Part shown: positions 12,069 to 47,872 of the stretch, in pieces
Numbering within the stretch: the stretch's first letter is position 1
Layout of the letters: every line of letters begins with the position of its first letter
NCBI GenBank assembly: GCA_041666915.1
Contig: JBAYFZ010000001.1
Span: forward strand, 354,508-418,507
Reading direction: 5' to 3'
DNA: 64,000 nt
From: Minisyncoccota bacterium
Lineage (GTDB): Bacteria > Patescibacteriota > Minisyncoccia > Phycocordibacterales > PALSA-1337
The notes under the pieces: model-generated
Seen by the model: the letters and a program-made list of their open reading frames with translations, nothing else
Told to the model about the DNA's origin: nothing
The model's database searches: none
Program-made: the position numbers and the translations under genes

Positions 12069-12388
12069 TCCGGAGTAGCTCAGCGGTAGAGCGATCGCCT
12101 GTAGAGTATGCAGCTTTCTGTCGAAAGGCAGATCGAATAACGAGGTGAATTCGGGGAAACCCCAAACGTAATTGTGGGCAATCCCGAGCCGAGCCCGCCA
12201 AATGGTGGGAAGGTGTAGAGACTATCCAATTTTGGAGTAGCTTGAATTATTTATATAATAATTCTTGCGAAGCCCCTCGTCCCTAAACTGTGGCATTGCC
12301 ACGATATGGGAATGATATAGTCCGTACCATTAGTAATAATGGATTAAACGTAAGCGATTGGTCACAGGTTCGAATCCTGTCTCCGGAG
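12069..12388 (+). tRNA. tRNA-Asn(GUU) interrupted in the anticodon loop (between positions 35 and 36) by a group I intron; mature tRNA 72 nt
   Basis: The 5' exon 12069-12102 is TCCGGAGTAGCTCAGCGGTAGAGCGATCGCCTGT. The 3' exon 12351-12388 is TAAGCGATTGGTCACAGGTTCGAATCCTGTCTCCGGAG. Joined, they give a perfect cloverleaf with acceptor TCCGGAG/CTCCGGA, anticodon stem ATCGC/GCGAT, loop CUGUUAA and discriminator G73. Confidence 0.85.
12103..12350 (+). ncRNA. group I self-splicing intron (248 nt) within tRNA-Asn
   Basis: Core elements are recognisable: P-like AATTGTGGGCAA, Q-like AATCCCGAGC, R-like GTAGAGACTATCC, S-like GATATAGTCC. A P9 hairpin CCATTAGTAATAATGG precedes the terminal omega-G at 12350. 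The 5' exon ends in U, which can pair in P1 (CUGU/GCAG). Confidence 0.75.
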
Positions 12389-13933
12389 CAAAGCTGGATG
12401 AAGGGGCGTAATAACGCCCTTTTGTCCTTTCTGGACAAGGGTTTTCTGTGGTTCGAAAAGCTTTTCTGAGTCAATCTTCTCTTGAACACGTTTAGCAATC
12501 ATCTCCACCGATTTCTCCAATGTATAGCTCACTTTTTCGTTGTTAATGACTAAGTTCGAAAAAATCTTCTTCAGAATCATTCGACGTTCCATTGGATTTC
12601 TTTTTTCATAAATCTCTCGGGACCTTCGAGCTATGTCAATAATATCAATGTATCGTTCGAAATATTTAACCTCATCATTCTTGAGTCTCGCAATTTGTGA
12701 TTGGATTCCTTCCTGTTCAGACATTATCTCCGCTTGTTTTGACTCCCAGCGGTCCCTAGTAATCTTCTCGTCTAAGTGATCATCATAAAGTATGTCCAAT
12801 CGCTTCTGTAGGCTGTTATAGCGTTCCTGAAGAGCTTTTAACATATTCTCCTTGTATTCAGATTCGCCTTTATGATCATCACGGATCTTTTGATATAGTT
12901 GCTCAGCTTCGACAGGTGTAATTGCCTCAAATATTCTAAATACAGACAAGATCGAGTTCTCAATTTCTTCTTCTCGAGTCGAATACCTCTGTGAGCAAGT
13001 CTTGTAGTGCTTACATGAGTAATAAATATGACCTTTCTGGACCTCCCCGTAGATTGTACTGCCACATTCTCCACAATGAATCATCTTAGAGAATATATGC
13101 TGACGCCTCTTATAATGTGGCGCACCGTCCCGGACCAAAGCTGTTTGCACTGAGTCAAACAGTTCCTTAGATATTAACGGTTCCTGTTTTCCACCTCTAT
13201 ACAAGACTCCCTTCCAAATCATATCTCCATAGAAAAAAGGATCTTTTAGTATCTCATGTAAACAGGACTTACCAAGCTGACAACCATTTCTTGCTCGTAA
13301 TCCCTCTGAGTATAGCTTGTCACTTAGGGCCATCAATGAATAATTGCCTGTAGCATAATATTCAAAAGCCTTTTTCATGAACGGTCCCCGGACCTCATCT
13401 ATGACGTGTATTTTGTGACCCTTGTCGCCAATAGTCTTATATCCGAGTGGTGGCGTACATGGGAGCCAACCCTGAGCGATTTTCTCCTTCTGACCTTTCT
13501 TCACCTCTTCTGAGAGATTGTTGGTGTAGAAGCGTGCAATAGCTATCTTCATATCCCAGACCAGATTCTCGTGAGCACGGGTATTCTTGTTAACTACTGA
13601 ATTCTCCTTCACAAAGTGCACTTCACGAGCTTCATCTTCCTGAATCCAGTCATTAACTATCGAAGCATCTTTCAAATTACGTGTTAGACGATCTATTTTC
13701 TCACAGAGGATAATATTCACATCATTCTTAACTGTATATTCCAACATCTCGTTAAACACAAGGCGTATTTGCTTGCCACTGGCTGATTCACTGATCCTAA
13801 AAACTTTTGATATTGTAAGGTTCCTTTTACCTGCATATTCCTTCAAGAGCTTTTCTTGTGCATCAAGAGAGTAACCGGTTTCCTCCTGTTCTCGAGATGA
13901 TACACGTGCATATATGACGCAGTCGGTTTTCAT
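12362..13933 (-). CDS. large serine recombinase (resolvase/invertase catalytic domain + recombinase domain + zinc ribbon)
   Basis: N-terminal VIYARVSSREQ catalytic-serine motif and DRLTRN; central recombinase domain; Cys-rich segment CGECGSTIYG...YYSCKHYKTC. The 3' end of the ORF overlaps the 3' exon of tRNA-Asn. Confidence 0.85.
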   Translation of the reverse strand: MKTDCVIYARVSSREQEETGYSLDAQEKLLKEYAGKRNLTISKVFRISESASGKQIRLVFNEMLEYTVKNDVNIILCEKIDRLTRNLKDASIVNDWIQEDEAREVHFVKENSVVNKNTRAHENLVWDMKIAIARFYTNNLSEEVKKGQKEKIAQGWLPCTPPLGYKTIGDKGHKIHVIDEVRGPFMKKAFEYYATGNYSLMALSDKLYSEGLRARNGCQLGKSCLHEILKDPFFYGDMIWKGVLYRGGKQEPLISKELFDSVQTALVRDGAPHYKRRQHIFSKMIHCGECGSTIYGEVQKGHIYYSCKHYKTCSQRYSTREEEIENSILSVFRIFEAITPVEAEQLYQKIRDDHKGESEYKENMLKALQERYNSLQKRLDILYDDHLDEKITRDRWESKQAEIMSEQEGIQSQIARLKNDEVKYFERYIDIIDIARRSREIYEKRNPMERRMILKKIFSNLVINNEKVSYTLEKSVEMIAKRVQEKIDSEKLFEPQKTLVQKGQKGVITPLHPALLRRQDSNL

Positions 13934-14521: not shown

Positions 14522-15021
14522 GATCCCGGGGTTTTGTTTATCCTCATAATCAAACTCGGCGAGTAGATTAAATAACGACGCCAATCCGATAACGTCATTT
14601 TCTTGATTATTTAATTTTGAATTATTTTCGACCATTTGTGTATGATGGTGTGAACGATTTACTCACCATTGACGACCATCATACTAAAACAGCCATTTAC
14701 GTTTAAAATAAAAATTAAATATGGCTTAACTAAGCCAATTATACAAAATAATCCAATACACACTTATTCTTACTCCTATAATATTTTATATTCTTTTCCG
14801 TTGATAAGTAGAACAGGTTTTGATACTATAATCACATATAAGAATACTGACGCCAGAAAGGCCCAGCTGGCGCGCGCCTTCATTAGAAGGAAGAGCGAAT
14901 GGAGGAACTGCCGCCCTCCCAGATCTATCTAAAAAACTTCCTTCAATAAAGGAAGTTTTTTAGTTTAAAACCATTACTTTCTGTTCGACCAATTGGGTAC
15001 AAACTTTAATACAACTAGCAG

Positions 15022-15094
15022 TACCCTCGGAAGGACTCGAACCTTCAACCTTGCCGATAGAAGCGACTTGCTCTGTCCATTGAGCTACGAAGGC
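15022..15094 (-). tRNA. tRNA-Arg(UCU)
   Basis: The reverse complement GCCTTCGTAGCTCAATGGACAGAGCAAGTCGCTTCTATCGGCAAGGTTGAAGGTTCGAGTCCTTCCGAGGGTA folds as a 73-nt cloverleaf with anticodon loop CUUCUAU and T-arm GAAGG-TTCGAGT-CCTTC. Confidence 0.8.
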
Positions 15095-16797: not shown

Positions 16798-17655
16798 CTA
16801 GAGAATCTTCTTAAGTTCCGTGATTAAATTCTTTTCTTTTTCATCAAAAGGGATACCATTTTTCCTTTTCTTTTTTACTTCTTCTATAAGTTGTAATATG
16901 TGAAGAGAAAAATCCGATTGAATAGTGTCTCGATCAAGTTCAGCTACCGTTGCATCAGGGTCTGATAAAAATCTATAGATTTCGGCTTCATTGGCAGCGG
17001 CACGGGCAAATATCTTCTGTATCTTGCGAAAATCTTTAGCATTTTTAATAATACGATGCTTAACCTTTTCAAAGAGTATTTTAATTATATCCGGCGTCTC
17101 AAAGTTTCTTATCTTTCTCAATTTTGGCCACAATCTCACGAACTCCATCCGGTACACTTCCTTAAGATCATACTTAACCATAAGCTCAAGATAATCTAAT
17201 TTTTGTTCTCTCAATTGAAGAGACGACGCAATAGTTGTCCTCGAGAGATTCAAAAGTTTTGAAAGTTCTTCATTACTCTTAAGTCCTAGCATTATCTTTG
17301 CTCTATGAAGGGAGTTTGATTTTTCCATAGGTTTCCACCCTTTTCGGTTATTCTGTTTTTCATATCGTCGTATTTCTAACTCTCCATCATCAAGATCTGG
17401 ATAAATCTGACACATAGCTTTTTCTACACCCAGACCTTTTAAACAAAGATAACGACGATGCCCATCAATTATTAAGTAACGATTATCGTCTTTCTGGGTA
17501 ACCATTATCGGTTCTTGAAGTCCAAATTGCTTAAGAGAACTAGTAAGCTTTTCTTGTTCTGATGGATTACCATATTCTTTTCGTGGCTGATTACTATCTA
17601 ATTCAATTTCTGAAATTAATACTTCCTTAAAGATTGTTGTATGTTTCCCTATCAT
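16798..17655 (-). CDS. ParB/Srx-fold nuclease-like domain protein
   Basis: N-terminal ParB box (LIIDGHRRYLCL, GxRR) with a C-terminal helical region. Confidence 0.7.
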   Translation of the reverse strand: MIGKHTTIFKEVLISEIELDSNQPRKEYGNPSEQEKLTSSLKQFGLQEPIMVTQKDDNRYLIIDGHRRYLCLKGLGVEKAMCQIYPDLDDGELEIRRYEKQNNRKGWKPMEKSNSLHRAKIMLGLKSNEELSKLLNLSRTTIASSLQLREQKLDYLELMVKYDLKEVYRMEFVRLWPKLRKIRNFETPDIIKILFEKVKHRIIKNAKDFRKIQKIFARAAANEAEIYRFLSDPDATVAELDRDTIQSDFSLHILQLIEEVKKKRKNGIPFDEKEKNLITELKKIL

Positions 17656-17851: not shown

Positions 17852-18082
17852 ATGAAAAAAGTCTTCATCACATTCTTTGCTTTTGCTTTACTATTTACTT
17901 TCAATAACGCCGAGGCTCGCACAACAAGAGTTAGTGGCTACTACAAGCCTTCTACTGGCACCTACGTAAGTTCGTACTACAAGACGTCACCAAACTCTAC
18001 CAGGCTTGATAATTGGTCAACCAAGGGCAATTACAACCCATATACTGGAAAGAAAGGATACACTAGCCCTTACAAGTGGTAA
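17852..18082 (+). CDS. small secreted Tyr/Ser/Thr-rich protein
   Basis: Signal peptide MKKVFITFFAFALLFTFNNAEA, then YYKPSTGTYVSSYYKTSP-type repeats. Confidence 0.5.
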   Translation: MKKVFITFFAFALLFTFNNAEARTTRVSGYYKPSTGTYVSSYYKTSPNSTRLDNWSTKGNYNPYTGKKGYTSPYKW

Positions 18083-18362: not shown

Positions 18363-18758
18363 CTATGGGATGCAAATACCCTCAAACCTGCTGATTAGCT
18401 CCCCTTCGTCACTTATCACATCTGGGACCGAGCACCATCTTCCAAAGATATGCCAGACGATATTTCCGGAGTCATTTCTAGTTTTTATGAACTTAGTCAG
18501 GCTGAATGCTATCCACTTACCATCGATTTCGTAGTAGCCACCTGATATATCTCCCGAATCTACGTAAATTATCTTATTCGTCTCCTCATCAGATAGGATT
18601 TTATTTCTGTGGACCCAAAATACTATTCCCGGACCTTCATCAATTTCAGATTTATAGGTTACATTTACATACTCCGTCGACAGGTGGCCACGTATACGAG
18701 CATCAAAAATACATTGCGGAATTGGACACCATGATGGAGCTTTGAAATCTTTGTTCAT
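18363..18758 (-). CDS. hypothetical protein
   Basis: 131-aa ORF, first (3'-most) of nine co-directional genes of unknown function. Confidence 0.4.
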   Translation of the reverse strand: MNKDFKAPSWCPIPQCIFDARIRGHLSTEYVNVTYKSEIDEGPGIVFWVHRNKILSDEETNKIIYVDSGDISGGYYEIDGKWIAFSLTKFIKTRNDSGNIVWHIFGRWCSVPDVISDEGELISRFEGICIP

Positions 18759-18837
18759 TTGATTACAGTTATTCGAAAACTATCCAAGAATAATCTAAGC
18801 TGATTTTCATCCTTTCGTAAATTAGACTTGTCTCAAT

Positions 18838-19287
18838 CTATTTCTTTGCAAGGTTTTCTATGTGTAGAGCTTTTAATTGTTTAACCAGCTTATCATATTC
18901 CTCTTTATTAAACTCGAGTGGAGGATATATTATTAGTTTACCTATCATAGATGGAAAATTACGAACCTCATATCCATCGTTACCATCTGGCATTCGAATT
19001 GGTATTTCAGACACTCTAACTCCATCCATATTTTCTAAAAACCTTTTCCAAATTACTTTATCTTCTCTATGTACAACTTCTACATAGACACCGCAACAGG
19101 CACTTATCAAACATCTTCCGAGACATATTTCATAAAACCCATCTTTTTCTAGGCTTTTTTCAAATTCCTGAATGTTAAAAAATCGTCTCTGAGGATTGCC
19201 ATCCAGCACAACTTCAAAAGCCCCGCTATTAGCAATGAGATCTTTAAACAAAACATCTTTATTTATTCTATATGATAATGTGTTCAT
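18838..19287 (-). CDS. hypothetical protein
   Basis: 149-aa ORF. Confidence 0.4.
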   Translation of the reverse strand: MNTLSYRINKDVLFKDLIANSGAFEVVLDGNPQRRFFNIQEFEKSLEKDGFYEICLGRCLISACCGVYVEVVHREDKVIWKRFLENMDGVRVSEIPIRMPDGNDGYEVRNFPSMIGKLIIYPPLEFNKEEYDKLVKQLKALHIENLAKK

Positions 19288-19316
19288 TTTATTAAATACC
19301 CTTGATTTGTTCTTTG

Positions 19317-19790
19317 TTATTTTCCATGAGTATATGATTTCAATAAATTACTAATCATTCTACCAATACGTGTCCTCCCACGTATAAGTCTTGGCTTTTT
19401 CGTCCCCGCATAGAGTTTATATAGTTCAAGAAGAACCCCATCAATGAACGCTCTGCTATGTTCAGTATCAACTTGCATTTTTTCAACATATTCATGCAAG
19501 AATGCCAACTTATCGACCGGCTTCTCTTTTTCTAGACAATCAAAGAAATGGAAACAAGTGCTTTGGACCCTATCTGCAACAGAGCCTTCGTACCACGCAT
19601 TGGGTCTATAGCGTCCATATTTAATTTTATTGATGGTCATACTTACCAGCACATCAGTGAGGAAGCCGTGATATTTTTCGGTATTATCGTCAACATAACC
19701 GCACCAAAAACACGCTACACCCCGTTTGAATGGTATATATTGTTTAGAGCATTTCGGGCATGCGTATTCAGCTTTGATGTGGAAGGTCAT
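19317..19790 (-). CDS. hypothetical protein with N-terminal zinc ribbon
   Basis: CPKCSKQ...CFWCGY Cys4 motif. Confidence 0.4.
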   Translation of the reverse strand: MTFHIKAEYACPKCSKQYIPFKRGVACFWCGYVDDNTEKYHGFLTDVLVSMTINKIKYGRYRPNAWYEGSVADRVQSTCFHFFDCLEKEKPVDKLAFLHEYVEKMQVDTEHSRAFIDGVLLELYKLYAGTKKPRLIRGRTRIGRMISNLLKSYTHGK

Positions 19791-19853
19791 ATAATTTATC
19801 GTTAACGAATGATATGTCTCATCTTAGTAATCTATTCGATACTACAAATATAA

Positions 19854-20156
19854 TCATACTATATAAAACATGTTGAATAATGCTTTAGTAAAAAGATAAT
19901 ACCCAAAAATTTCAATTAGAATGTTAAATATCCAAAAAATCGGACTCAAATTTTTTTCTATCCTATATTGAATAAACATTAACATTGCAGCAACGGCCCC
20001 ACTTAATGCAAATCCGATCGGAAGATAGAAAATTGATCTAATACTCAAAAAAGTAATACCGGTTGTCCAGAATAGGATTATAGAATAAATAATAAAATAT
20101 ACAATTGCACGATAATATGAATAGTATCTGGTTTCGTATTCGTACATATTTGGCAT
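19854..20156 (-). CDS. small membrane protein
   Basis: 100 aa, 3 predicted TM helices. Confidence 0.4.
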   Translation of the reverse strand: MPNMYEYETRYYSYYRAIVYFIIYSIILFWTTGITFLSIRSIFYLPIGFALSGAVAAMLMFIQYRIEKNLSPIFWIFNILIEIFGYYLFTKALFNMFYIV

Positions 20157-20747
20157 TTAATTATTTAACCACCTAGATACTCCTCCACGGTGTGAGCATG
20201 AATTGCTTTGGTTCAAACCAAAGCTGAATGTACCATCTCTGCATTGTGCAGTTGATCTTATTGAAATACTTCTGGGTGGATCTGCATACCCATGCATCAA
20301 AGCTAATGGGTCATTATAGTAACCTCTCACATGGGTTATACCTTGTTGTGTTGATATTTCATTAGTTGACCAACCACCACCTAAAGCAAATATAATAACA
20401 GATACTAATAGTAAAAATGTTGGTAACACTGCAACAATCCAAACTATTATCTTCATGTTTCTAAAAAACCTTTTTGATTTATTGACACGAAACTTTTTCA
20501 TTTGTCTTCGAAGAAGCCACGCAGAGAATACGATCCAAAAAATGCCCCCGACTAAAGTCATTGAACCATTTGCACTAGGTACTAATAAGATCAGTTCCTT
20601 GACTAGCACCATCGTGAACAGAGATAGCAACAAAATAGCGATTGTGACGAAAATCCAGTCTCGCAGAGTCAACTTGAACGTTCCTAGATCCAGAGCATCA
20701 ATGATTTTTTCATCGGGACCAAGAGTATTAGATGTGTTATTGCTCAT
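20157..20747 (-). CDS. membrane protein with C-terminal DUF3761-like Cys-rich domain
   Basis: C-terminal CRDGTFSFGLNQSNSCSHRGGVSRW resembles the DUF3761 signature (CxDGxxSxS...CSHHGGV..W); TM segments lie upstream. Confidence 0.5.
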   Translation of the reverse strand: MSNNTSNTLGPDEKIIDALDLGTFKLTLRDWIFVTIAILLLSLFTMVLVKELILLVPSANGSMTLVGGIFWIVFSAWLLRRQMKKFRVNKSKRFFRNMKIIVWIVAVLPTFLLLVSVIIFALGGGWSTNEISTQQGITHVRGYYNDPLALMHGYADPPRSISIRSTAQCRDGTFSFGLNQSNSCSHRGGVSRWLNN

Positions 20748-20818
20748 AAATTTGTTTAATTATTATCTAGAAATTGATTTTTATATTACTTTTAAGTACA
20801 TTTTCAAAGCTTCACTCA

Positions 20819-21094
20819 TTACCAAGTTAACCTTAAGAAAGACAGAAATCTATAACAAATCGAAACATATCTTTTTAGAATAATTACAGATCCACAGACT
20901 CGATCATTATTTAAGTTCAAATCGGTTGCAATAGGCTTAAGCTGATTTTCAATTTTCTTCATATATTCAACATAAGCATTACCGTAGTGATTGATATTGT
21001 ATACAGAGATATTAAACCACTTAAGCTCTTTCTCCATTCTTCCTATTACCAATTCAAAATCATCAGTATAATTAACTTGATGAAAAATCAACAA
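20819..21094 (-). CDS. hypothetical protein
   Basis: 91-aa ORF. Confidence 0.3.
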   Translation of the reverse strand: MLIFHQVNYTDDFELVIGRMEKELKWFNISVYNINHYGNAYVEYMKKIENQLKPIATDLNLNNDRVCGSVIILKRYVSICYRFLSFLRLTW

Positions 21095-21126
21095 CCAATA
21101 ACCATCTTCTTGTGATATTTTTTGGT

Positions 21127-21900
21127 TTAGATTTTTATCAAGATAACCAAGATACCTCTTAAAATAAGAGAGTTCTTTTTTTGTTTATATAAAGTTTTAT
21201 TTAATTCTGCAATTTTCTTAAGAAGTTTTACTTTATTATCTTTATGTATAGATAAGATATTTTTAATATAGCCATAAGCAAAAGAGAAATTATCATCCGA
21301 AAGATATCCGTAAGTGGTTGTCTGTGTAGTTGTTTGACTAGACAAATATTCGTGGTCAATAAAAGTTTTCACAACCTTTCTTCCTACCATCATAATATCA
21401 GCGAACCCTAACATCATTGCTGTAATATCAGTATAAAATTCATTATCTTTTTCCTTGTGCAACAATGAATATAGGACGATATGTGATAATTCATGAGCCA
21501 TCACAGTTATTAGTGTCGATGGATTCTCAATACAATTTTCACTTAGTCTAATGCTTATAGGAAAATTGATCATACTCGAAGTTCCGTAGAAAGGTAAGTT
21601 TGCAGGGATAGAGACCTGAGCTGTGATACCTCCTGTACCTCTACCTCTCCAATCAGTCTTTACAAGATGAGTGCTCCGGAATCCGTCGTTTGTATTTGGA
21701 CTATATCCTTTTGGTACATACGACAAATTTACTTCAATTGGTAAACCTAGATATCCTGCAATTTCCTTTATAGCTTCTTTTATCTTTTTTGAAAGAATTA
21801 AAGATATAATTTTTTGGTGATCAACAAATTCCTTAACACCAATTGTACTTGAAAGATGATTTATTGCATTCTCTATGTATTTATTATCAACTTCTTCCAT
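21127..21900 (-). CDS. HExxH zinc metallopeptidase-like protein (possibly ImmA/IrrE-type)
   Basis: VMAHELSHIV motif with acidic residues downstream; no other homology recognised. Confidence 0.4.
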   Translation of the reverse strand: MEEVDNKYIENAINHLSSTIGVKEFVDHQKIISLILSKKIKEAIKEIAGYLGLPIEVNLSYVPKGYSPNTNDGFRSTHLVKTDWRGRGTGGITAQVSIPANLPFYGTSSMINFPISIRLSENCIENPSTLITVMAHELSHIVLYSLLHKEKDNEFYTDITAMMLGFADIMMVGRKVVKTFIDHEYLSSQTTTQTTTYGYLSDDNFSFAYGYIKNILSIHKDNKVKLLKKIAELNKTLYKQKKNSLILRGILVILIKI

Positions 21901-21986
21901 TTATAAATATAATTTAACTATTAAGCTAGAGAAGATTAATCCAAAAAAACTAAATATGTACTTATTACAAAACTTTCTTCCAATTT

Positions 21987-23039
21987 TTAATAAGCATTGA
22001 ATTGAGCAGGGTCCATATAGCTCGTCTCAGCAGTACCACCAATCACGGGATTGAGTGTAATGGTAAACTTTGAGTATTTAACGTATTGACTGTCTTCCGT
22101 TGTTGTAATATCAAAAATATCATCAAATGACTGCGAGTTAGCACTTTTTACGAAGGTCTTATTTACTGTATCCCAGTCCACCCCTTGCATAAATGCAAGC
22201 AAATATTTTCCATCCGATATGTTTGTTATGGTGTAAGTGTTCTCAGCTCTGACGTAGACTGTGAAAATCGATGTGCCGTTGCGAAGCAATTTTGCTACAG
22301 CGTCATGGCTCGTTCCGTTTTTTATTAGGAGTTGACCATCACCATCCAGATAACTAGAAACCTTCTTAAACACATAACCATTATCAAGCGAATATGGGAC
22401 GGTTAAACCTGCTTGCCTGTCCTTAAGAAATTGTTGATGTGCCGTCGTTGTTGAATTAAATACTTCGTCAGACTTGTTAAGCCATGTACAATAATCCGGT
22501 TCAAATAGGCTTATAAGGCCACCAGCGCTACATGAGGCTTTAATTTTAGCTTGGGTAGCTTTCATGGCGTCACACTTTGCTCTCGTGGTAGGGTCTAATT
22601 TGTCCGTAGGTGTGTCTATGTGAAGACACTCTACTTCCTTACCAAGTTGGTCAATTTTCGTTGTGTCGATATGTTGAATCGGAGTTATGAATGAAGGTAA
22701 TGACGTTGGTTGTGGCAATGGCATTTTGGTTCCTCCGGTGTTTGAATCACTATCGCCAGAATAAGCCCAAGCAATAAAAATTATCACCGCAACGACTACG
22801 ACACATTTATTAAAGATAGCTTTTTTAAGAAACCTTGTGGCCATAGCGGTATAGTCTTTTACCAGTCTGATTTTTGCTTCGTAACCTTTATAAAACTTGT
22901 CGCTCTCGACTGTTTCTTTTACAGCACTAAAATGATTAGATGCATTATTTGCTATGCTTTCCACTAAAGAAAGCAGGCAGTACGGACATTTAATCGCCTT
23001 ATCATGAATCTCTTTTTTACAAAATGGGCATTTTTTCAT
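21987..23039 (-). CDS. membrane-anchored protein with N-terminal zinc ribbon and extracytoplasmic domain
   Basis: CPFCKKE...CPYC, a single TM (VVVVAVIIFIAWAY), then a ~250-aa domain. Confidence 0.4.
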   Translation of the reverse strand: MKKCPFCKKEIHDKAIKCPYCLLSLVESIANNASNHFSAVKETVESDKFYKGYEAKIRLVKDYTAMATRFLKKAIFNKCVVVVAVIIFIAWAYSGDSDSNTGGTKMPLPQPTSLPSFITPIQHIDTTKIDQLGKEVECLHIDTPTDKLDPTTRAKCDAMKATQAKIKASCSAGGLISLFEPDYCTWLNKSDEVFNSTTTAHQQFLKDRQAGLTVPYSLDNGYVFKKVSSYLDGDGQLLIKNGTSHDAVAKLLRNGTSIFTVYVRAENTYTITNISDGKYLLAFMQGVDWDTVNKTFVKSANSQSFDDIFDITTTEDSQYVKYSKFTITLNPVIGGTAETSYMDPAQFNAY

Positions 23040-23057
23040 GTTATTTGATTACACTTC

Positions 23058-23552
23058 CTAGTAAATTATCTGCTTGCAAGTTGAACATTTAACATCTTCG
23101 TATAGGTTTTTATTGACTGGCACCCTTAGTCGCTGGCCGCATTTTCTACAAATTACGATCTCTTTTTCTGCAAAGTACTTAATCTTTATAATTTTTATGA
23201 AAATAATTAGTCCTACTAGTGAAATCGGTATAGTAAACAATAAGATTTTTGGATCGCTAGCTCCTGTAAATATCTGAAATAAAATAAACGGTATAGCTAG
23301 ATAAAGATAAAAATATGTTTTAAAAACATGAGCTCTATCCAGGTTGACCTTCTGTTTCTGATATTGAGTCTTGCTACTGTTATAAAATCCTAAAAAGAAT
23401 CGATCTGTCTTACCTTCCCATAATCGATAAGAATCAAGTGGTATGATTGGAAGAAAAAATATAATAAACCACTCGGTGGCCACATATGAACCATCAGGTT
23501 TCTTATTACTCGCACCATAATATATGGTGCCTATACCATTGAATGAAGACAT
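23058..23552 (-). CDS. membrane protein with C-terminal zinc ribbon
   Basis: TM helices plus CRKCGQ...CSTCKQ. Confidence 0.4.
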   Translation of the reverse strand: MSSFNGIGTIYYGASNKKPDGSYVATEWFIIFFLPIIPLDSYRLWEGKTDRFFLGFYNSSKTQYQKQKVNLDRAHVFKTYFYLYLAIPFILFQIFTGASDPKILLFTIPISLVGLIIFIKIIKIKYFAEKEIVICRKCGQRLRVPVNKNLYEDVKCSTCKQIIY

Positions 23553-24144
23553 TTTAAATCATTTTACAAACACAAAAAGCCCACCACGGGTAGAGGCCGA
23601 AGCCCCTCATATCAGTTTCCCGATATGGCAGATTAAGGCGACCCCATGATGGGTTCTTTGTCCTTAATCTGACTAACTTTTCACCATGCCAGAAATCACT
23701 TATTTCTGGTTTAGGCTACTTATACATATTCAGTTGTATGTTTAGGATACCACTCTATTACGTCCATGCCAATATTCAGCTCTTTAACAATCGTGTAATG
23801 CATGTCTCCCTTCACCACATAATAGTGTATAATAAAGCTATGAAATACGCTTATCTATCCATAATAATTCTTTTAATAATCAGTGGTTTTTATTGGTTTC
23901 AGTTGCGACCAAGCCAAATTAAAAAACATTGTTTTTATACCAGTGCAACATTAAAAGAAAATTTATCGCCTCATGCCGATTTAACTTCTCCAGATAGCTT
24001 TAGTCTCGCCAGCGTAGAAGCACAATCCAATTACCATTCTTGTTTAACCTCGAATGGACTTTAAGGTTGAACTCGAAGAAAAAATGTGATGTAAGTCACT
24101 ATCCACAGTTTTTTTATTTCTATTTGGTTGATATAATGTTGCTC

Positions 24145-24705
24145 AACATTCAATAGTGAATGTTGAAATTGACAACACATGCTCGCTTGCCTGAACAACA
24201 AGCACACAAGAGCGACCGGTTATCCCCGAGATTCCTTAGACGGGTACTCTAGCAGGGACAGTGATGTCCCATGCTAGCGTTCACTAGTAATGGGAACATC
24301 GGATTTATTTTCGAAGTTCTTGTTAAGAGTGCCGGTCTAAGGAATTTTTGCGTATTGTTTCGCCTCATCTGTACATCACGAATTGATGTGCGGATTCTGG
24401 CGGAATTAATACCGCAGAAGCAGAGTGTCGATAGCTCTTATCTGGCAGAAACGCCAGGAAGTTTGATTTTGCAATACCATGCAGAAAACAAACAAAAGTC
24501 AGATCTGCTTTCCGTCAAAAGACGGTCTCAAGTTGATCTGCAACGCCGTTGATAGGTACGGTGACGGACAGTTGTGGGAAACCATCTCTGGACGTTGGAT
24601 TCCTATCGATATAGAAAATGCACCGGCTTTTACCAGTGCATTTTCAAGAAAATCCTGACGTGGTTTTTCTTACACAACCGCTCCCGCAAGGGAGCTTTTG
24701 TGTTT
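24145..24705 (+). ncRNA. candidate structured ncRNA / non-coding transcription unit of unknown class
   Basis: Extended -10 promoter TGATATAAT at 24129-24137. The region has elevated GC and many hairpins (e.g. CAACATTC-AATAG-GAATGTTG; GAAAATGCACCGG...CCAGTGCATTTTC). Terminator GCTCCCGCAAGGGAGCTTTTGTGTTT at 24680-24705. The only ORF (24271-24552) has no RBS and low-complexity content. Confidence 0.4.
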
Positions 24706-24847
24706 GAGTTATTATATTATAGACTACGAACGGCTTGTCAAGGAAGCATAAAACCTGTGTATAGCAATTTTATGATTAACAAATAATAAAAAGTCAAACT
24801 TAAAACTGCCCTATTGGCTTTAAATATGTACAAAAACGCGTCTCAAA

Positions 24848-25437: not shown

Positions 25438-27318
25438 CTAATCGTTCTTACTCTTAGATGTAACCCAACTTTCTTCAAGATCAACGGTACCACTATTTGG
25501 TCGTCTCGATTTCTCAAGAAGCTCAATATCGACTTTAACCGGTATATCCGAAGCTAATCCAGCAACAAAACAACTTCCCACAGAAAGAATTGGAATGCTT
25601 TGAAATGACAATTTATCAAGATAAGCGACAGCTTTTTCTACTGCGCTTATATCATTATCATTTATAAGTCTATGAATAAAATAGTTATGTAGCTGAGAAA
25701 TTATTGTGGCTGATATATCATAAGGCCTTTGGCTTGCAATAGTTAGAAAGACACCAAATTTTCTTCCCTCCTTTATAATTTCTTCAAAAGTCTCTAGACG
25801 ATAATCCTTCCATGTCTCACTTTCTCGCTGAGACATTGTGGAGAGAATATTATGAGCCTCATCTATAATTATATGTAGCGATTTTTTGTCAGACTCCTTT
25901 TTGTTTTCGTACAACTGTTTCGCAATTATTAGCGGAACAATCTTCTTCATCTCAATATTTACATCTCTTAAAGAAATGACGGATAGATTCTTTGATTCGG
26001 GGCTATCTTTAATATCAATCAGTTTCTCCAACATATCAAACTTTCTGAACATTCTGCCCACTAATGGTCCAATATGTTCTTGGTTTGAATATCCCTTTAC
26101 GATTTCATGAAAATAATTAAAAACGATTTTCAATTTCAGCTTACTAAATTCGTCAGCCTTAAAGACCAGTGCATCCACAGATGTTTTAAGTCGAGTGTCG
26201 TATATAGGGTTTTTATTGTTGTAATTATTGCCATCATTTGATGCGTCCCAGTAATACTCCTTTGTAAGGGAGTGATAGTGTAGTTTATTTTCAATATCTT
26301 TTTTAAGTGCAATTACATCATCCTTCTTCTCATCTGTAACAAGATTTATCAGGTCTCTAAAAAGCTCGATGATTACCCCTTCTCTAAGGTTTCCATCCTT
26401 CTTATCAATAACACCAGTACACAGATCTTCGATACTTGTAATAGCTCGAGTATTAAAAGTCGTATTATCATCAAGATAATCATTACGTATAACTCTATCG
26501 AGAAAGGGCTTTTGTGTTTTTTCTGTTGCCTCCAGTAAAACAGACAGGATTTCTGTCTTGTGAATACTTTCTCTAGGAAGCGGGTATTTTTTCTTACTGC
26601 CTTTTTTACCAGTTGATAGCTCATAGACCACTTTGTCTTTCGTAATCATTTCATCACCAGTATATTCACCATTGAAATCAATTATCACAAAATCTGATTT
26701 GGTTTTGAAATCACCTTGATCTGAGAATGTTTTAAAAAGCTCAGTGTATATTTTCGCAAGTGTATTTGATTTACCGCTTCCGGTGTTGCCGAAAATACCA
26801 ATATGGCTGGCAAACAATTTATTAACACCTAGCTTTATCTTTTGTGACGGCTCTTCTGTTAGACTGCCGACCGCAATAGTTTTGTCACCCTTTTTGTAAA
26901 ACTGGTGAAGTACATTAAATTCATCTCTATTTAGCAAATAGCACTCATTATCGATCAAGGGCATTTCTTTTATACCCTGCTTTACACAATTACCTTCAAA
27001 ATGACCAAAGAGAGACAATTGCAAAACCCTATTTATCCTAGTCTCTTCTTTGTTGTATTCTTTATTAAAAAACTTTTCTTCAGAGGTAAATTCGCCCTCA
27101 ACTTTTCCAATAATACTCACGAAACCCTTTACTATCTTTACATAGCTACCTACAGACACATTTTTTACAGTTTTTCCTTCGAATAAAATATGCGAATGAT
27201 TTTTATTTTTATTTAGTTTTACCCTAACAATTCTACCGTCAACTGAGAGAACGCGGCCAATTATAAAAATCGACTCTTGCATCAATTCTTGCTCAATTGT
27301 TTTACTCTTTGTCTCCAT
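25438..27318 (-). CDS. herA: HerA-like (DUF87) ATPase, partner of SIR2 in the SIR2-HerA antiphage system
   Basis: N-terminal HAS-barrel-like segment, Walker A GNTGSGKSN, Walker B HIIIDEAHN, and the GRKFGVFLTIASQRP motif typical of HerA/FtsK-like ATPases. Confidence 0.8.
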   Translation of the reverse strand: METKSKTIEQELMQESIFIIGRVLSVDGRIVRVKLNKNKNHSHILFEGKTVKNVSVGSYVKIVKGFVSIIGKVEGEFTSEEKFFNKEYNKEETRINRVLQLSLFGHFEGNCVKQGIKEMPLIDNECYLLNRDEFNVLHQFYKKGDKTIAVGSLTEEPSQKIKLGVNKLFASHIGIFGNTGSGKSNTLAKIYTELFKTFSDQGDFKTKSDFVIIDFNGEYTGDEMITKDKVVYELSTGKKGSKKKYPLPRESIHKTEILSVLLEATEKTQKPFLDRVIRNDYLDDNTTFNTRAITSIEDLCTGVIDKKDGNLREGVIIELFRDLINLVTDEKKDDVIALKKDIENKLHYHSLTKEYYWDASNDGNNYNNKNPIYDTRLKTSVDALVFKADEFSKLKLKIVFNYFHEIVKGYSNQEHIGPLVGRMFRKFDMLEKLIDIKDSPESKNLSVISLRDVNIEMKKIVPLIIAKQLYENKKESDKKSLHIIIDEAHNILSTMSQRESETWKDYRLETFEEIIKEGRKFGVFLTIASQRPYDISATIISQLHNYFIHRLINDNDISAVEKAVAYLDKLSFQSIPILSVGSCFVAGLASDIPVKVDIELLEKSRRPNSGTVDLEESWVTSKSKND

Positions 27319-28321
27319 GATTCATGCTATTTAAGACTTCACTGAGGACCGACTGATTGATTTTTTCTAGGTTAAATCTACTTGCTGGCTCATCATCTGA
27401 GGGTTCAATGATTTCAATATTTGAATACCTCAATTTTCCAAGTTGCATTTTTGTCTTCATACTTGAATCCGTATCCTTTCCGTGGCAAAACACATAAATT
27501 TTTAGTGTAGGATTCGATTCTGCTGCTCTTATCGTTATTTCTCGAATATGTTCATCTTCCATAGAGAATCCTAGAACAAAAAGAACGGTATTTTCTTTTT
27601 CCAGTTCACCTGAATACATTCTGAGCAATTCGTAGTAAGTTACATCGATTACCGTTTCTTCAAGTTTTTTCCTTTCTGGATTTACTATTGCTAATCTTTC
27701 ATAACCAGCCTCAAAAGCTCGTTGTCCCTTTTTTAACAAAGATTTATCGAAATGTTCTAGCTTTGAAAAATGAATTTTATTTTCAACCTTTTCCCATGTC
27801 AAAGATCCGTGGACTTTCATAAGATTAAACAAAGGTATTTCTGAAACATTCTCATAGTGCAAACTTCTTTTTTGTATTGATTTTTTAAAATTACTCAGGC
27901 TAAAAGTAGCATTTAATCGACCATTGAAACCATCGTTATATTCAAGACTACTATCTTCCAAAACAGTTTCCATCAGTATATCTATGTTTGTAGTAAATAT
28001 GTTAACTTGCTTACTGAGAATTGTATTCTTGCGCTTCAAAAGTATACGTGCAAGCATTTCAAAAAAATCCTTATACGCCTTACATGTTGTATCAAAATCG
28101 CCTTTTTTAGCTATTGATTTACTAATAATTTCAAGATTAGGAATTATTACTCTCTCAAAATACTCCTTCTTTATCTTTACCCGCTCAGATTTCTTTTTTT
28201 CGCTAGATAAACGAGTCTCAATATCACCAAGTATTGGCAAAAACGGTGTTGAAAGACCAGCCCCAACTAGGACATTTATGTGCGAGCTCTGTATGGCCTC
28301 TTTTATTTCTTGAGGTTTCAT
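27302..28321 (-). CDS. SIR2-family (DHS-like NAD-binding) protein, SIR2-HerA antiphage system
   Basis: VLVGAGLS (GAGxS), IFTTNIDIL (TTNYD-like) and MKVHGS (HGS) motifs; overlaps the herA start by 17 nt. Confidence 0.8.
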   Translation of the reverse strand: MKPQEIKEAIQSSHINVLVGAGLSTPFLPILGDIETRLSSEKKKSERVKIKKEYFERVIIPNLEIISKSIAKKGDFDTTCKAYKDFFEMLARILLKRKNTILSKQVNIFTTNIDILMETVLEDSSLEYNDGFNGRLNATFSLSNFKKSIQKRSLHYENVSEIPLFNLMKVHGSLTWEKVENKIHFSKLEHFDKSLLKKGQRAFEAGYERLAIVNPERKKLEETVIDVTYYELLRMYSGELEKENTVLFVLGFSMEDEHIREITIRAAESNPTLKIYVFCHGKDTDSSMKTKMQLGKLRYSNIEIIEPSDDEPASRFNLEKINQSVLSEVLNSMNHGDKE

Positions 28322-29743: not shown

Positions 29744-30096
29744 GTCGACGATAAGTGAGCTGGTTGTCGATACGGCCGAAAGGCAATGTAAATTAGCTCT
29801 CGGGGTTTGTATCCGTCAACGGGAGATACCCCTAAACGAACAGTTGATTTGGTACATCAAAAAAGTCGGCACTTGAGCATAAGCTCAGCCCATCATCGGC
29901 GCAAGCTCGTTAGTTATCTGATCCTGCGAGTAGCACCGGCAGAGGGCACTTTGCCGACACAAAAGAAAGAGTGGCACGATGTGCATGTCTAGCTTGCACG
30001 CCACAGGTTTGGTGGTACTTAGTCTCCACCCGATGAAGTACGCGACTTCATGAGTCAATTCGCCCGGAACCACCACTTTGGTTCCGGGCTTTTTTA
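29744..30096 (+). ncRNA. candidate structured ncRNA of unknown class
   Basis: Promoter TTGACA-16-TAAGAT at 29710-29737. A ~350-nt GC-rich ORF-free region ends in the terminator GCCCGGAACCACCACTTTGGTTCCGGGCTTTTTT. The small ORFs inside (29807-29992 and 29885-30076) look spurious. Confidence 0.4.
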
Positions 30097-30100
30097 TTTC

Positions 30101-30190
30101 CTCATGTCCTTCATAAACAACGACTGATTGTAAATTCCCTACATGTATTCCCTATCTGAGAATATGGTTATAATAATCTCATGTTCGGGG
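30101..30190. repeat. ~90-bp repeat R copy 1 (CTCATxxCTTTCATAAACAA...GTATTCCCTATCTGAGAATRTGGTTATRATAATCTCA)
   Basis: ~85% identical to copies at 32141-32230 and 34367-34455; each follows a rho-independent terminator. Confidence 0.75.
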
Positions 30191-30201
30191 ATGGCATACA
30201 A

Positions 30202-30897
30202 TTATTTTTCGTTATCGTGCATTACTTTCAATAAAAAGATGGTATCAGTCTTTAACTTTGCACGAGCAGAATCCTTCTGTGAATCAGTGATCAATTCACC
30301 AAGCCCATCTAAAATATGTTTATTATCCATTGACTCCAACATGGCAATACATTTCTCTAATGCTTCCTTATATGGAACTCCCGATCTTTCTTCCACAATC
30401 TTGCGGTTAATAGGCCAGTTATTTTTAGCAAAATACTGAACATCAAAAATATCACGACTTGTCTTACCGATTCGCTCAAACATTGCCATCAACTTATGTG
30501 CAAACATGTCTTCTTGGACCATTACGAGCATTGAGATGCCGAGATATGTTTTCATTTCATACTTTGAGCCAAGTTGGCGACGATTCACCTCAACCTTAAT
30601 TTTCTGAGCATTAGTATCATAAGAGATAACATTCTTTAAATTGAATCTCTGCATGTATGAATCAGTAATTTTGCCGTAATTACTTACAATCTTGTTTATT
30701 TTCTCAAAAACGTCCTTTTCTTTTGTCTCATCCAACAAATCAAGATCCAAATCTACAGAGTTTCTGGGCAAATCATAAAACATCATAGCTGCGGTACCAC
30801 CTTTGAATCCCAAATAAGGTGCAATAGAGGTATCAGAATAGATATCTTTTAAGATCTGTAACAAGATATTCTTATGTTTTGAGTAATCTAATGTCAT
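30202..30897 (-). CDS. abiEii: AbiEii/AbiGii-family nucleotidyltransferase toxin (type IV TA / abortive infection)
   Basis: LGFKGGTAAMMFYDLPRNSVDLDLDL matches the DUF1814/AbiEii signature. Confidence 0.75.
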   Translation of the reverse strand: MTLDYSKHKNILLQILKDIYSDTSIAPYLGFKGGTAAMMFYDLPRNSVDLDLDLLDETKEKDVFEKINKIVSNYGKITDSYMQRFNLKNVISYDTNAQKIKVEVNRRQLGSKYEMKTYLGISMLVMVQEDMFAHKLMAMFERIGKTSRDIFDVQYFAKNNWPINRKIVEERSGVPYKEALEKCIAMLESMDNKHILDGLGELITDSQKDSARAKLKTDTIFLLKVMHDNEK

Positions 30898-31478
30898 ATA
30901 ATTTTTTGATATTCTTTTACCTTCTTTTCTAAACGCTTGTTGTTATAAATTGGTAATATTTCCATCACCTTATTCCAATCCAATGAACGCAAATTATCAA
31001 AGTGATAATCTTTGCTTACATATACACGGTCTAAAAAGGCACGTTCACGTGATGCGGTGGCAATACCACTTGTATGTTCTATTCCCATTGAATTACTCAA
31101 AACGTAATCTTTCATCCGAACGAAAGTAATTTTTTGATCACCAATTGTAATTTCTCGATTCATGTATGATGCAACGAAAATATTTCCGTAATATTGGAAA
31201 TTTACCCCTTCACGAGTCAAAATGGTTTCAAAGCTAATATATGATGGGGTGTAGATACGAGTTGCTAATTCGAAACGATTGTAATTTTTATCTTTAGCAT
31301 AAAATCCTCTGTGAACTCTGATCAACTTTTCCGCTTTTACATAATAGTTCAAACGGACCCTAGCCGCTGATTCATTTTGTTCCCCCCACATCAAAACCAC
31401 ATCCTTTGTTGAAAAGATGGTCTGGGGTGATCTTAATAAGATCTCCAAAAATTCGCCTTTTGTGGGTTTATTATCCAT
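30894..31478 (-). CDS. abiEi: AbiEi-family antitoxin / transcriptional regulator
   Basis: KLIRVHRGFYA motif typical of AbiEi N-terminal domains; stop overlaps the abiEii start by 4 nt. Confidence 0.65.
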   Translation of the reverse strand: MDNKPTKGEFLEILLRSPQTIFSTKDVVLMWGEQNESAARVRLNYYVKAEKLIRVHRGFYAKDKNYNRFELATRIYTPSYISFETILTREGVNFQYYGNIFVASYMNREITIGDQKITFVRMKDYVLSNSMGIEHTSGIATASRERAFLDRVYVSKDYHFDNLRSLDWNKVMEILPIYNNKRLEKKVKEYQKII

Positions 31479-32085: not shown

Positions 32086-32140
32086 GCGTAACCCGCCCGA
32101 ACAGAGAAACCCTCCGTTCACGGCGGGTTTTCTTTTTATA

Positions 32141-32230
32141 TTCTCATCACTTTCATAAACAACAACCGATTGTGCATCCCCTACATGTATTCCCTATCTG
32201 AGAATGTGGTTATGATAATCTCATGTTCAG
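32141..32230. repeat. ~90-bp repeat R copy 2
   Basis: See copy 1. It is preceded by the hairpin CCCGCCCGAACAGAGAAACCCTCCGTTCACGGCGGG+T-tract, itself reused at 38338. Confidence 0.75.
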
Positions 32231-32248
32231 GAAGCATAAGATTGTAAT

Positions 32249-34311: not shown

Positions 34312-34366
34312 ATCCCCCGCCCGAACACGAAGCCCATCGCTTCAGTTCGCGGCGGGTTTCTTTTTT

Positions 34367-34455
34367 CTTCTCATCGCTTTCATAAACAATAACTGATTGT
34401 ACATCCTCTATATGTATTCCCTGTCTGAGAATGTGGTTATGATAATCTCAGGTTC
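34367..34455. repeat. ~90-bp repeat R copy 3
   Basis: See copy 1. Confidence 0.75.
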
Positions 34456-34630
34456 GGAAAGTGTTGCACTTCAGAGTGGAATTTTAGGAGCCAAGTTGAC
34501 AACATTGATTAAAAGATGTAATTTAAGTCTAAATTGCTCTAACAAAATTAAAACGAAGGTAAATTATGAAATCAGGAAGAAACGTCGCACTTGCGAACAA
34601 TGATAGATTTTTTCTCTTCATCGTATTCAA

Positions 34631-38329: not shown

Positions 38330-38500
38330 TATCACAAACCCGCCCGAACAGAGAAACCCTCCGTTCTGGTGGGTTTCTTTTTTTATATAATGAAATCCCC
38401 AAATCAATCACATTTGACTATATATCTATATAATATCATACTGAAACAAGTCAATTTGATATTCACAAAAAACAACAAATAACAAACGGAGGAACATTTA

Positions 38501-43204: not shown

Positions 43205-43307
43205 AAGTTACGTTAGGCGGGACAAGGCAACATCATTAATGTAATGTTGCTTTTTTGTTACCGTGATTCGCTCCACCAGTCGGTAGATGGCGAATTCTCA
43301 GTTTTAA

Positions 43308-43340
43308 TACCCCCTCCCCCCTAGGGGGTATCAAGACTAA
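43308..43340. repeat. CCCCCTCCCCCCTAGGGGGTATCAAGA palindromic repeat (copy A)
   Basis: G/C-run palindrome centred on CTAG; related copies at 47483-47500, 47800-47872 and 53288-53420, all at 3' ends of minus-strand genes. Confidence 0.7.
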
Positions 43341-43741
43341 AGAGATACAGTAAACTCAACTTCAAAAGGATACATACCCATTCCACATGTTCCTGAAAGC
43401 TTACCAACCTTACCCACACCAATATCAATATCAGTAGAACCAGTCTGTGGTAACGCTTTAGAAATATTCATACTTGGAATACGTACGTAAGATGAACAAT
43501 CAAAAGTCCCGTTAGTATTGAACCTAATAACAGTAGGAATGCCTGCCTTTGCAATACTTTTCCTAGGCTGATAACCACCTCTAGCGGTTATTTCAATAAT
43601 CTGTTTTCCATCAATAACAGAAACATTATTTGCATTAGTTGCAACTTGTCCTGAAGTAACCGTATTACCACCTCTCACCAATAACAAAGCTCCTGCAATG
43701 AGGGTAACTGCGACTATAATAGATAAAATGGTTGCTTTCAT
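43337..43741 (-). CDS. secreted cupredoxin-like/metal-binding protein (putative copper-handling accessory)
   Basis: TM/signal anchor, Cys/Met-rich C-terminus (CSSY...GTCGMGMYPF); adjacent to the copper-efflux genes. Confidence 0.4.
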   Translation of the reverse strand: MKATILSIIVAVTLIAGALLLVRGGNTVTSGQVATNANNVSVIDGKQIIEITARGGYQPRKSIAKAGIPTVIRFNTNGTFDCSSYVRIPSMNISKALPQTGSTDIDIGVGKVGKLSGTCGMGMYPFEVEFTVSL

Positions 43742-47469: not shown

Positions 47470-47799
47470 AATGAATACATGGTATACCCCCTAGGGGTAT
47501 CTTGTCAATATTACTAACTGGTGTTATTGATGTCATTGTAAAATTATGCATCACAAAAATCGCAAAACACTATTAAGAAGGTTTTTTACTCAGTAAGAGG
47601 GCACTTTCGCGGGAAGATTACACAATTTATCTCCGTCCGACAGATAGGTCACAACGGACAGGGTTTCCTGCGTATTAAAGATACTAAAAAAGTGACGGAT
47701 TTTTCGTCACTTTTTTATAGTTATATTACAGTTGAAAGGAACTAACCAATAAAAATACTTTTACTTCGCCACCCGCTCAATTAGATAAACACGAACACA

Positions 47800-47872
47800 A
47801 TACCCCCTCCCCCCTAGGGGGTATCAAGACCAAAGAAATGTAATGCACCCCCTCCCCCAGGGGGAGGGGGTC
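47800..47872. repeat. CCCCCTAGGGGG-family palindromic repeat (copy C, compound)
   Basis: ATACCCCCTCCCCCCTAGGGGGTATCAAGACCAAAGAAATG...CCCCCTCCCCCAGGGGGAGGGGG. Confidence 0.7.

Follow-up and report, generated by a model that had tools for sequence, protein, structure and literature searches.

A minus-strand run of nine closely spaced open reading frames (ORFs; O1 to O9, positions 18363–23552) in a 64,000-nucleotide (nt) stretch of contig JBAYFZ010000001.1 from a Minisyncoccota bacterium (assembly GCA_041666915.1; hereafter the window) raises the question of what these small genes are and whether they form one unit. An initial annotation of the DNA had described nine genes with no assignable product and had likened them to the cargo of mobile elements, such as an immunity or anti-defence set or an envelope-associated system. 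Our analysis leads us to favour, with modest confidence, the reading that this stretch is a mosaic cargo operon of envelope proteins, led by a copy of the LOOT RNA and carried by a serine-recombinase/ParB integrative island in the chromosome of a member of Candidatus Paceibacterota, within the Candidate Phyla Radiation (CPR). The best reading of the cargo itself is a mosaic, mostly of membrane proteins, and not one machine.

A LOOT RNA heads the array

Directly 5′ of O9, the first gene of the array, lies a structured RNA that was absent from the initial annotation, a full-length copy of LOOT (RF03000; coordinates in Table 1). The cmscan match spans model positions 1–121 of 121, reaches 78.6 bits where the gathering score is 46.4 (E = 4e-13), and shows the consensus helices. 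At the 3′ end of the RNA, a hairpin and U-tract stop 19 nt ahead of the O9 ATG; this hairpin has only 4–5 base pairs, and the minimum free energy fold hints at an alternative pairing of CCCAUC with GGUGGG. The LOOT motif stems from the survey of Weinberg et al. 2017 (PMC5737381), it is listed as metagenome-based (PMC7779021), and its Rfam type is 'Gene; sRNA' (small RNA). The supplement of the original survey aside, the searchable literature gives neither a function nor a genomic context for it.

Comparison with other LOOT copies revealed a common organization. A sub-family sequence pattern retrieved 120 metagenomic loci, and a profile search confirmed LOOT in 108 of them. At the position that corresponds to the promoter-like site of the window (Table 1), some 30 nt 5′ of the RNA, the 103 unique copies have an extended −10 box, TGGTATAAT, that is conserved among them, and GGTGGGCTTTTT, which was not in the search pattern, is present 3′ of LOOT in 92 of the 103 unique loci. 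In 81 unique loci the sequence reaches far enough past LOOT to judge the first ORF, which is co-directional with the RNA in 76, and in 41 of these 76 it starts at most 50 nt from the U-tract, which leaves these 41 first ORFs no room for a separate promoter. Related LOOT copies with their hairpin cassette also head co-directional arrays in the loci L181 and L182 and in the IMG/VR contig L103. When a loose LOOT pattern was run against viral contigs, one of its 120 matches was a true LOOT.

The genes that follow LOOT are extremely variable in content and often encode membrane or secreted proteins. Transmembrane (TM) or signal segments are found in 127 of 242 genes of the downstream runs (52%), compared to 41 of 268 upstream genes (15%; odds ratio 6.1, p = 1.8e-19), and among complete first genes 39 of 55 have their hydrophobic segment in residues 1–40. 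Large serine recombinases are the family found most often near LOOT, at 44 loci, and ParB-like proteins come next, at 16. At two of six LOOT loci looked up, proteins fell into 90% identity clusters that bear the name Candidatus Staskawiczbacteria or Parcubacteria group. Four features of LOOT are new here, although the supplement of the original survey may hold some of them: its association with serine-recombinase islands, the conserved promoter with an extended −10 box, the hairpin with U-tract that is invariant at its 3′ end, and the membrane-protein arrays downstream.

Two families recur among the first genes downstream of LOOT. One, found in L182, L190, L200, L241, L268 and L301, has a signal peptide that ends in the motif ...PS(V/I)AFASWWNPFSW; the other, found in L189, L196, L218 and L244, starts with MKIQKRHLFVI...VSAVTVGTPNPGH.

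A variable array, probably the cargo of an integrative island

The setting of the array agrees with that given in the initial annotation, which had placed it between a recombinase/ParB module and defence genes: a ParB_N protein and a serine recombinase lie on one side and a SIR2_2/HerA gene pair on the other. The suggestion of mobile-element cargo likewise stands, given the two large serine recombinases, ParB, tRNA-Arg, SIR2-HerA and AbiE genes within the island and the housekeeping genes that flank it. It also agrees with L181, the closest related element, which keeps ParB and the recombinase at 82–84% identity, has LOOT, and shares only O8 (57%), O4 (53%) and O3 (60%) of the array. O9, O7, O5, O2 and O1 are not common to L181, which adds a reverse transcriptase and a helix-turn-helix (HTH) gene. 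The idea that the nine ORFs act as one unit is not supported, only sub-modules of them being found again: an O9-type gene followed by O8 and a protease, and O4 with O3.

This organization is similar to that of the accessory ('moron' or cargo) arrays of integrative elements and prophages, in which variable co-directional small genes lie between a recombination and partition backbone and defence genes, and in which close relatives differ in content. It departs from typical arrays of this kind in its CPR host, in the lack of phage structural genes from the window and in the conserved structured RNA at its head. A complete prophage was considered and rejected: among island ORFs of at least 90 amino acids (aa) with Pfam matches, none encodes a capsid, tail, portal or large-terminase protein. 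A Terminase_2-like HTH protein of 136 aa comes nearest, and the other genes belong to defence, toxin-antitoxin or chromosomal functions.

Within the array, all nine minus-strand ORFs were recovered at the coordinates first reported, with intergenic gaps of 0–86 nt, and a terminator scan of every gap showed no terminator-like site. Seven of the nine are annotated by NCBI (MFA6554271-77), each a singleton when clustered at 90% identity. TM prediction makes O9, O8, O5 and O4 membrane proteins, and together with the enrichment of TM and signal segments downstream of LOOT this upholds, in a general sense, the notion of an envelope-associated set. Three zinc-ribbon proteins fused to TM helices had also been described; two CxxC pairs are indeed present in each of O3, O8 and O9, and O3 proved to have no TM helix.

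The DUF3761-like end that had been noticed on a membrane protein was verified in O5, a 196-aa protein with three TM helices, whose C-terminal residues 164–193 match DUF3761 (PF12587) at 34.7 bits against a gathering threshold of 29 (E = 2.6e-8). Proteins with DUF3761 are encoded in four other LOOT loci. Beyond this domain, nothing significant was found for O1–O9 in Pfam, PHROGs, PADLOC or NCBIfam. O4, which NCBI does not annotate, is a real gene: L181 encodes a 96-aa homologue, 53% identical, at the same relative position. Homologues of O3 occur 3′ of LOOT in L181 (60%) and L182 (54%), with a weak fragment in L228, and the L182 protein is also encoded by L183–L186. The one homologue of O2 (P0184, 54%) lies on a 1.3-kb contig of uninformative context, beside an unrelated protein that, by reading of its sequence, resembles a response-regulator receiver domain. 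O1 is absent from all related loci examined, is without a counterpart in Pfam, PHROGs, PADLOC and NCBIfam, and matched only itself among the best 150 matches of an exhaustive search (described below); O7 relatives dominate these 150, and weak relatives of O1, O2 and O3 may lie below them.

A widespread zincin-like family

The HExxH protein of the initial annotation is present as O7, with HELSH at residue 136 of a 257-aa ORF. An exhaustive phmmer search with a concatenated query against 1.84 billion representative proteins gave 2,361 matches, mostly O7 relatives, of which the best 150 were listed. These proteins define a large family of about 360 aa, with hundreds of clusters at 50% identity in many phyla; among GTDB species representatives it is found in Patescibacteria, Pirellulales, Bacteroidales, Dehalococcoidia, Omnitrophota, Elusimicrobia and even Bathyarchaeota, with cross-phylum identity of up to 58–60%. 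No match to P0009 (370 aa), the best relative of O7, was found in sequenced plasmids or phages, and viral contigs contained no relatives of O7 or O8.

All 98 full-length relatives and all 33 N-domains compared have H136, E137, H140 and E154, so that the HExxH motif is accompanied by a third zinc ligand, the Glu at 154, on the next helix. The AlphaFold2 model of P0009 (pLDDT 94, pTM 0.90) consists of an alpha/beta N-domain, a Thr-rich beta-hairpin and a long helical bundle, and the N-domain of this family is predicted to adopt a zincin fold like that of the minigluzincin and M48 zinc peptidases. The earlier statement that no product can be assigned therefore mostly holds for function and no longer holds for this gene, to which a fold can be given. 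As a whole the protein had no structural match (Foldseek best E = 0.6), and whole-protein searches were uninformative.

Comparison to curated models gave sub-threshold scores for O7, both to SprT-like (E = 1e-3, 19.2 versus 25.6 bits) and to M48 (E = 0.07, 13.4 versus 20.3 bits). In the full-length relatives tested, the protease and helical domains had no significant Pfam, NCBIfam or PADLOC match, and Pfam and NCBIfam gave only weak sub-threshold matches of the zinc-ribbon or coiled-coil type. Sequence similarity to the minigluzincins (proabylysin 4jiu, projannalysin 4jix and selecase 4qhf) and to the M48 and M56 catalytic domains of ZMPSTE24, BepA, HtpX and BlaR1 is likewise sub-threshold. 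In contrast to all of these, O7-type proteins have an extra N-terminal helical subdomain, the Thr-rich beta-hairpin and a C-terminal helical bundle of about 160 aa, and, unlike these enzymes, the copy in the window is frameshifted.

The HExxH gene is interrupted by a frameshift

At 257 aa, O7 (21127–21900) is short for its family, 112 of the 150 listed relatives being single ORFs of 335–400 aa with HExxH, and the next ORF, O6 (20819–21094; TTG start, 91 aa), aligns with the C-terminus of P0009. In a tblastn comparison, residues 1–245 of P0009 are matched in one frame and residues 245–360 in the −1 frame, with the switch at CAA AAA AAG (21181–21175). Because the two ORFs are halves of one gene, the true number of genes in the array is eight, one of them disrupted: the nine co-directional ORFs first described do exist, and one of them, 20819–21094, encodes the C-terminus of the HExxH protein.

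One explanation of this break is that the gene is alive and that the sequence A_AAA_AAG directs programmed −1 frameshifting or transcriptional slippage, to give a short form of 257 aa and a full form of about 365 aa. The heptamer lies in the 0 frame with the correct phase for −1 slippage (X_XXY_YYZ, dnaX-type), homology is regained in the −1 frame exactly there, and the frameshifted sequence is identical in a second contig, the Logan contig L002, although both assemblies may come from the same sample and their independence is uncertain. We nevertheless consider programmed frameshifting very unlikely. The arrangement is not kept among relatives, most of the listed ones being single ORFs and other relatives being broken elsewhere (for example in L158, L161 and L165, each at a different position); P0009, the closest intact relative, reads AAA AAA CAA AAG ATA GAA at this site and lacks the heptamer; and a hairpin 3′ of the site is no better than that of shuffled sequence (z = −0.95). 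For these reasons, a homopolymer deletion that produced a pseudogene would be the likelier origin of the break.

The three frameshifted relatives named above (L158, 7392–8443; L161, 10001–11057; L165, 3858–4549) are from GTDB genomes (Pirellulales, Sulfotelmatobacter and Bathyarchaeota), and the family appears prone to decay.

A zinc-ribbon, ectodomain and protease module

The two genes that precede O7 encode zinc-ribbon membrane proteins. O9 has a TM segment at residues 103–121, the motifs CRKC and CSTC and a weak Pfam match to Zn_ribbon_15 (E = 0.012); a word-indexed search of 5.8 billion proteins returned only O9 itself. O8 ends in an ectodomain of about 145 aa, without a Pfam or PDB sequence match, and has homologues in P0010/L181, P0111, P0082 and P0116. 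Five O7-like proteins (P0015, P0029, P0032, P0070 and P0031) extend into a TM helix and a C-terminal domain of the O8 type, also of about 145 aa, and two of these fusions bear an O9-type zinc ribbon (CxxCGQxLRVP...KCxxC) between the parts.

Elsewhere, an O8-like gene lies directly 3′ of a Zn_ribbon_15 membrane protein in L181 and L307–L310, with a DZR protein instead in L311, and directly 5′ of a membrane-anchored Trypsin_2 protease in L307–L311. Because the same order is found in the window and in L307–L311, a zinc-ribbon TM protein followed by O8 and a protease would constitute a recurrent module in which the type of protease is exchanged, and we infer that its three proteins act together across the membrane. 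O8-like genes are also found beside the phage genes RusA and TerL.

In the operon of L307 (620–4134; also in L308–L310 and L311), all proteins share an N-terminal MFCxNCGK zinc ribbon and, next to it, a TM helix, and they differ in their outer domains (O8-type, Trypsin_2 or DUF2569). An XRE-type HTH gene precedes this operon and an IS110 transposase follows it.

The likeness of such a module to the BlaR1/MecR1 sensor-proteases lies only in its probable mode of action. In BlaR1 and MecR1, the protease is embedded among several TM helices, whereas a single TM helix is found here; the external domains are unrelated; and in the window each part has its own gene, that of the protease being broken.

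Proposed mechanism and alternative readings

We propose that the conserved promoter reads through the 126-nt LOOT leader and that LOOT most likely acts in cis to control how far transcription continues into the array, because the RNA ends in a hairpin and U-tract so shortly before the first start codon. The membrane module to be expressed would comprise an O9-type zinc-ribbon TM protein; O8, with a cytoplasmic zinc ribbon, a TM helix and an external beta-rich domain; and a protease, which in the window would be the cytoplasmic minigluzincin-like O7/O6, inactivated by the frameshift. O5 with its DUF3761, O2 and O1 would be lineage-specific additions, and the likely role of the cargo would be envelope remodelling or sensing on behalf of the mobile element. 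Taken by itself, the array is an ordinary cargo of an island, one of its genes being dead.

A further-reaching form of this proposal, which we advance only tentatively, is that LOOT works in cis as a leader RNA, as a conditional terminator/antiterminator or else as a ligand sensor, on the serine-recombinase islands of Parcubacteria/Paceibacterota, where it turns on exchangeable cassettes for secreted and membrane proteins, and that the new minigluzincin-like family and the zinc-ribbon-anchored ectodomains form a trans-membrane sensor-protease module.

Two other readings of the locus have to be weighed against the LOOT-led cargo operon. LOOT could be an independent, trans-acting sRNA with its own promoter and terminator, in which case the array would be expressed separately and the RNA would merely be a conserved landmark of the backbone beside a hot spot for cargo insertion. 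The sRNA class given by Rfam accords with this, as do the completeness of a unit made of promoter, structured RNA and hairpin with U-tract, and the extreme variability of downstream content that an insertion hot spot would be expected to show. However, in the 41 loci where a start codon follows the U-tract within 50 nt, as in the window, the space is too tight for a σ70-type promoter and leader, the hairpin is only 4–5 base pairs long, and orientation is kept in 76 of 81 loci; a free sRNA is thus a possibility that we doubt. Less probable still, and in our view unlikely, is a dedicated role in phage defence or superinfection exclusion, for the whole array or for its O9-O8-O7 core, with a membrane sensor coupled to a protease effector within a defence island. 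The SIR2-HerA and AbiE neighbours, the cross-phylum spread of the O7 family at such high identity with copies that are often broken, the fusion of O7-like domains to a TM helix and ectodomain, the phage genes beside O8-like genes and the Zeta_toxin-like and HSP70-like genes in the operon of P0009 would all suit such a system. Yet PADLOC-DB 2.0 has no match to O1–O9 at E < 0.01, and full-length relatives give two chance-level matches (ZorA, E = 0.0018, and MkoA, E = 0.001), which fall in the coiled-coil region. In addition, the O7 family has no conserved partner, O7 is a pseudogene here, and no relatives were found in sequenced phages or plasmids. We found no evidence that places the array in a known defence system, and the earlier suggestion of an immunity or anti-defence set has no support.

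Several observations also weigh against the LOOT-led cargo operon that we favour. The TM assignments come from a simple hydropathy window, and the ends of the island were not found, neither a duplicate of the tRNA-Arg 3′ end nor att or flanking repeats being detected. The hairpin and U-tract could simply terminate a free-standing sRNA, consistent with the Rfam type. O8-like modules outside L181 are without LOOT, and O9 occupies the slot of the Zn_ribbon_15 proteins in L181 and L307, its possible homology to this partner receiving an hhalign probability of 34%. Finally, the 54 genomes compared show no conserved neighbour of the O7 family, and P0009, its nearest intact member, sits in an unrelated operon of HSP70-like, AAA and Zeta_toxin-like genes, so that, fusion proteins aside, the adjacency of O8 and O7 in the window may be fortuitous.

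Other features of the island and the window

Table 1. Positions of the LOOT RNA, the array and the surrounding features in the window
Feature	Position (nt)	Strand	Basis
Housekeeping genes	0.5–11.7 kb		
Serine recombinase	12362–13933		Pfam
tRNA-Arg	15021–15094		
Serine recombinase, 452 aa	15438–16796	−	Pfam; 84% identity to L181 gene, same order
ParB_N protein	16798–17655	−	Pfam; 82% identity to L181 gene, same order
O1, 131 aa	18363–18758	−	ORF
O2, 149 aa, four clustered Cys	18838–19287	−	One homologue
O3, 157 aa, soluble, N-terminal Cys4 zinc ribbon	19317–19790	−	Motif reading
O4, 100 aa, multi-TM; start abuts O5 stop	19854–20156	−	L181 homologue
O5, three TM helices, terminal DUF3761	20157–20747	−	Pfam PF12587
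O7/O6, single HExxH...E (minigluzincin-like) gene, −1 frameshifted	20819–21900	−	Alignment to relatives
Frameshift site A_AAA_AAG, inside A7 run 21176–21182	21175–21181	−	tblastn frame switch
O8, N-terminal zinc ribbon, one TM helix, C-terminal ectodomain	21987–23039	−	TM prediction and motif reading
O9, 164 aa, membrane protein, C-terminal Cys4 zinc ribbon	23058–23552	−	TM prediction and motif reading
Short hairpin and U-tract, terminator-like, ends LOOT	23572–23594	−	Terminator scan
LOOT RNA (RF03000), full length	23592–23717	−	cmscan
Promoter-like site TTGGCA, 17 nt, TG-TATCCT, 5′ of LOOT	23744–23772	−	Consensus scan; putative function
SIR2_2 and HerA/DUF87 gene pair	25438–28321	−	Pfam
Terminase_2-like HTH protein, 136 aa	28739–29149		Pfam
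AbiEii/AbiEi toxin-antitoxin pair	30202–31478	−	
Chromosomal genes	38–51 kb		

Additional features of the window were observed on both sides of the array. Convergent to it, at 17852–18082 on the plus strand, lies a gene for a 76-aa secreted protein (phrog_29674, E = 1e-17). In L181, L214 and L208 its homologues are part of the co-directional array behind LOOT, which suggests a local inversion here. A SIR2 and HerA pair is also present 3′ of LOOT in L269. The stretch of about 1.1 kb 5′ of LOOT (23718–24847) is poor in ORFs and contains a 20-nt inverted repeat (24231–24250 and 24326–24345, with 90% complementarity) as well as, on the plus strand, a strong terminator-like hairpin (24680–24695); this stretch could be another non-coding feature or one end of the element.

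Further along, a 101-nt direct repeat occurs in three intergenic copies, 85–88% identical, near AbiE and TPR genes (30092–30192, 32134–32234 and 34361–34461), and a 52-nt terminator-like repeat in two intergenic copies (32090–32141 and 38337–38388); the two may represent a dispersed intergenic repeat family. A 41-nt repeat (43306–43346 and 47799–47839) holds the palindrome ATACCCCC...GGGGGTAT, one copy lying beside cupredoxin, DsbD-HMA and Cu-ATPase genes and the other near a sortase gene. We take this palindrome to resemble the operator of a metal-responsive repressor of the CsoR type.

Implications for LOOT and for CPR mobile elements

The O7 family has a fold predicted at high confidence, whereas Pfam, NCBIfam and the PDB offer no counterpart of the whole protein; a new family definition is clearly an option for it. 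For LOOT, an orphan RNA seen only in metagenomes, these results provide a reproducible grammar, in which a promoter, LOOT, a weak terminator and co-directional genes for membrane or secreted proteins follow one another with serine recombinases nearby, and they move LOOT from 'unknown sRNA' to a specific, testable hypothesis of cis regulation. A host assignment is hinted at as well, both by the window, which lies on a 450,810-bp contig of a metagenome-assembled genome of Paceibacterota, and by the Parcubacteria-group names of the clusters at two other loci.

The episymbiotic lifestyle of CPR bacteria is generally thought to depend on the cell surface, and to our knowledge little has been established about CPR mobile elements or how they alter that surface. 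If the tentative cis-leader proposal is true, LOOT would be an RNA switch encoded by mobile elements that remodels the surface of episymbiotic CPR cells.

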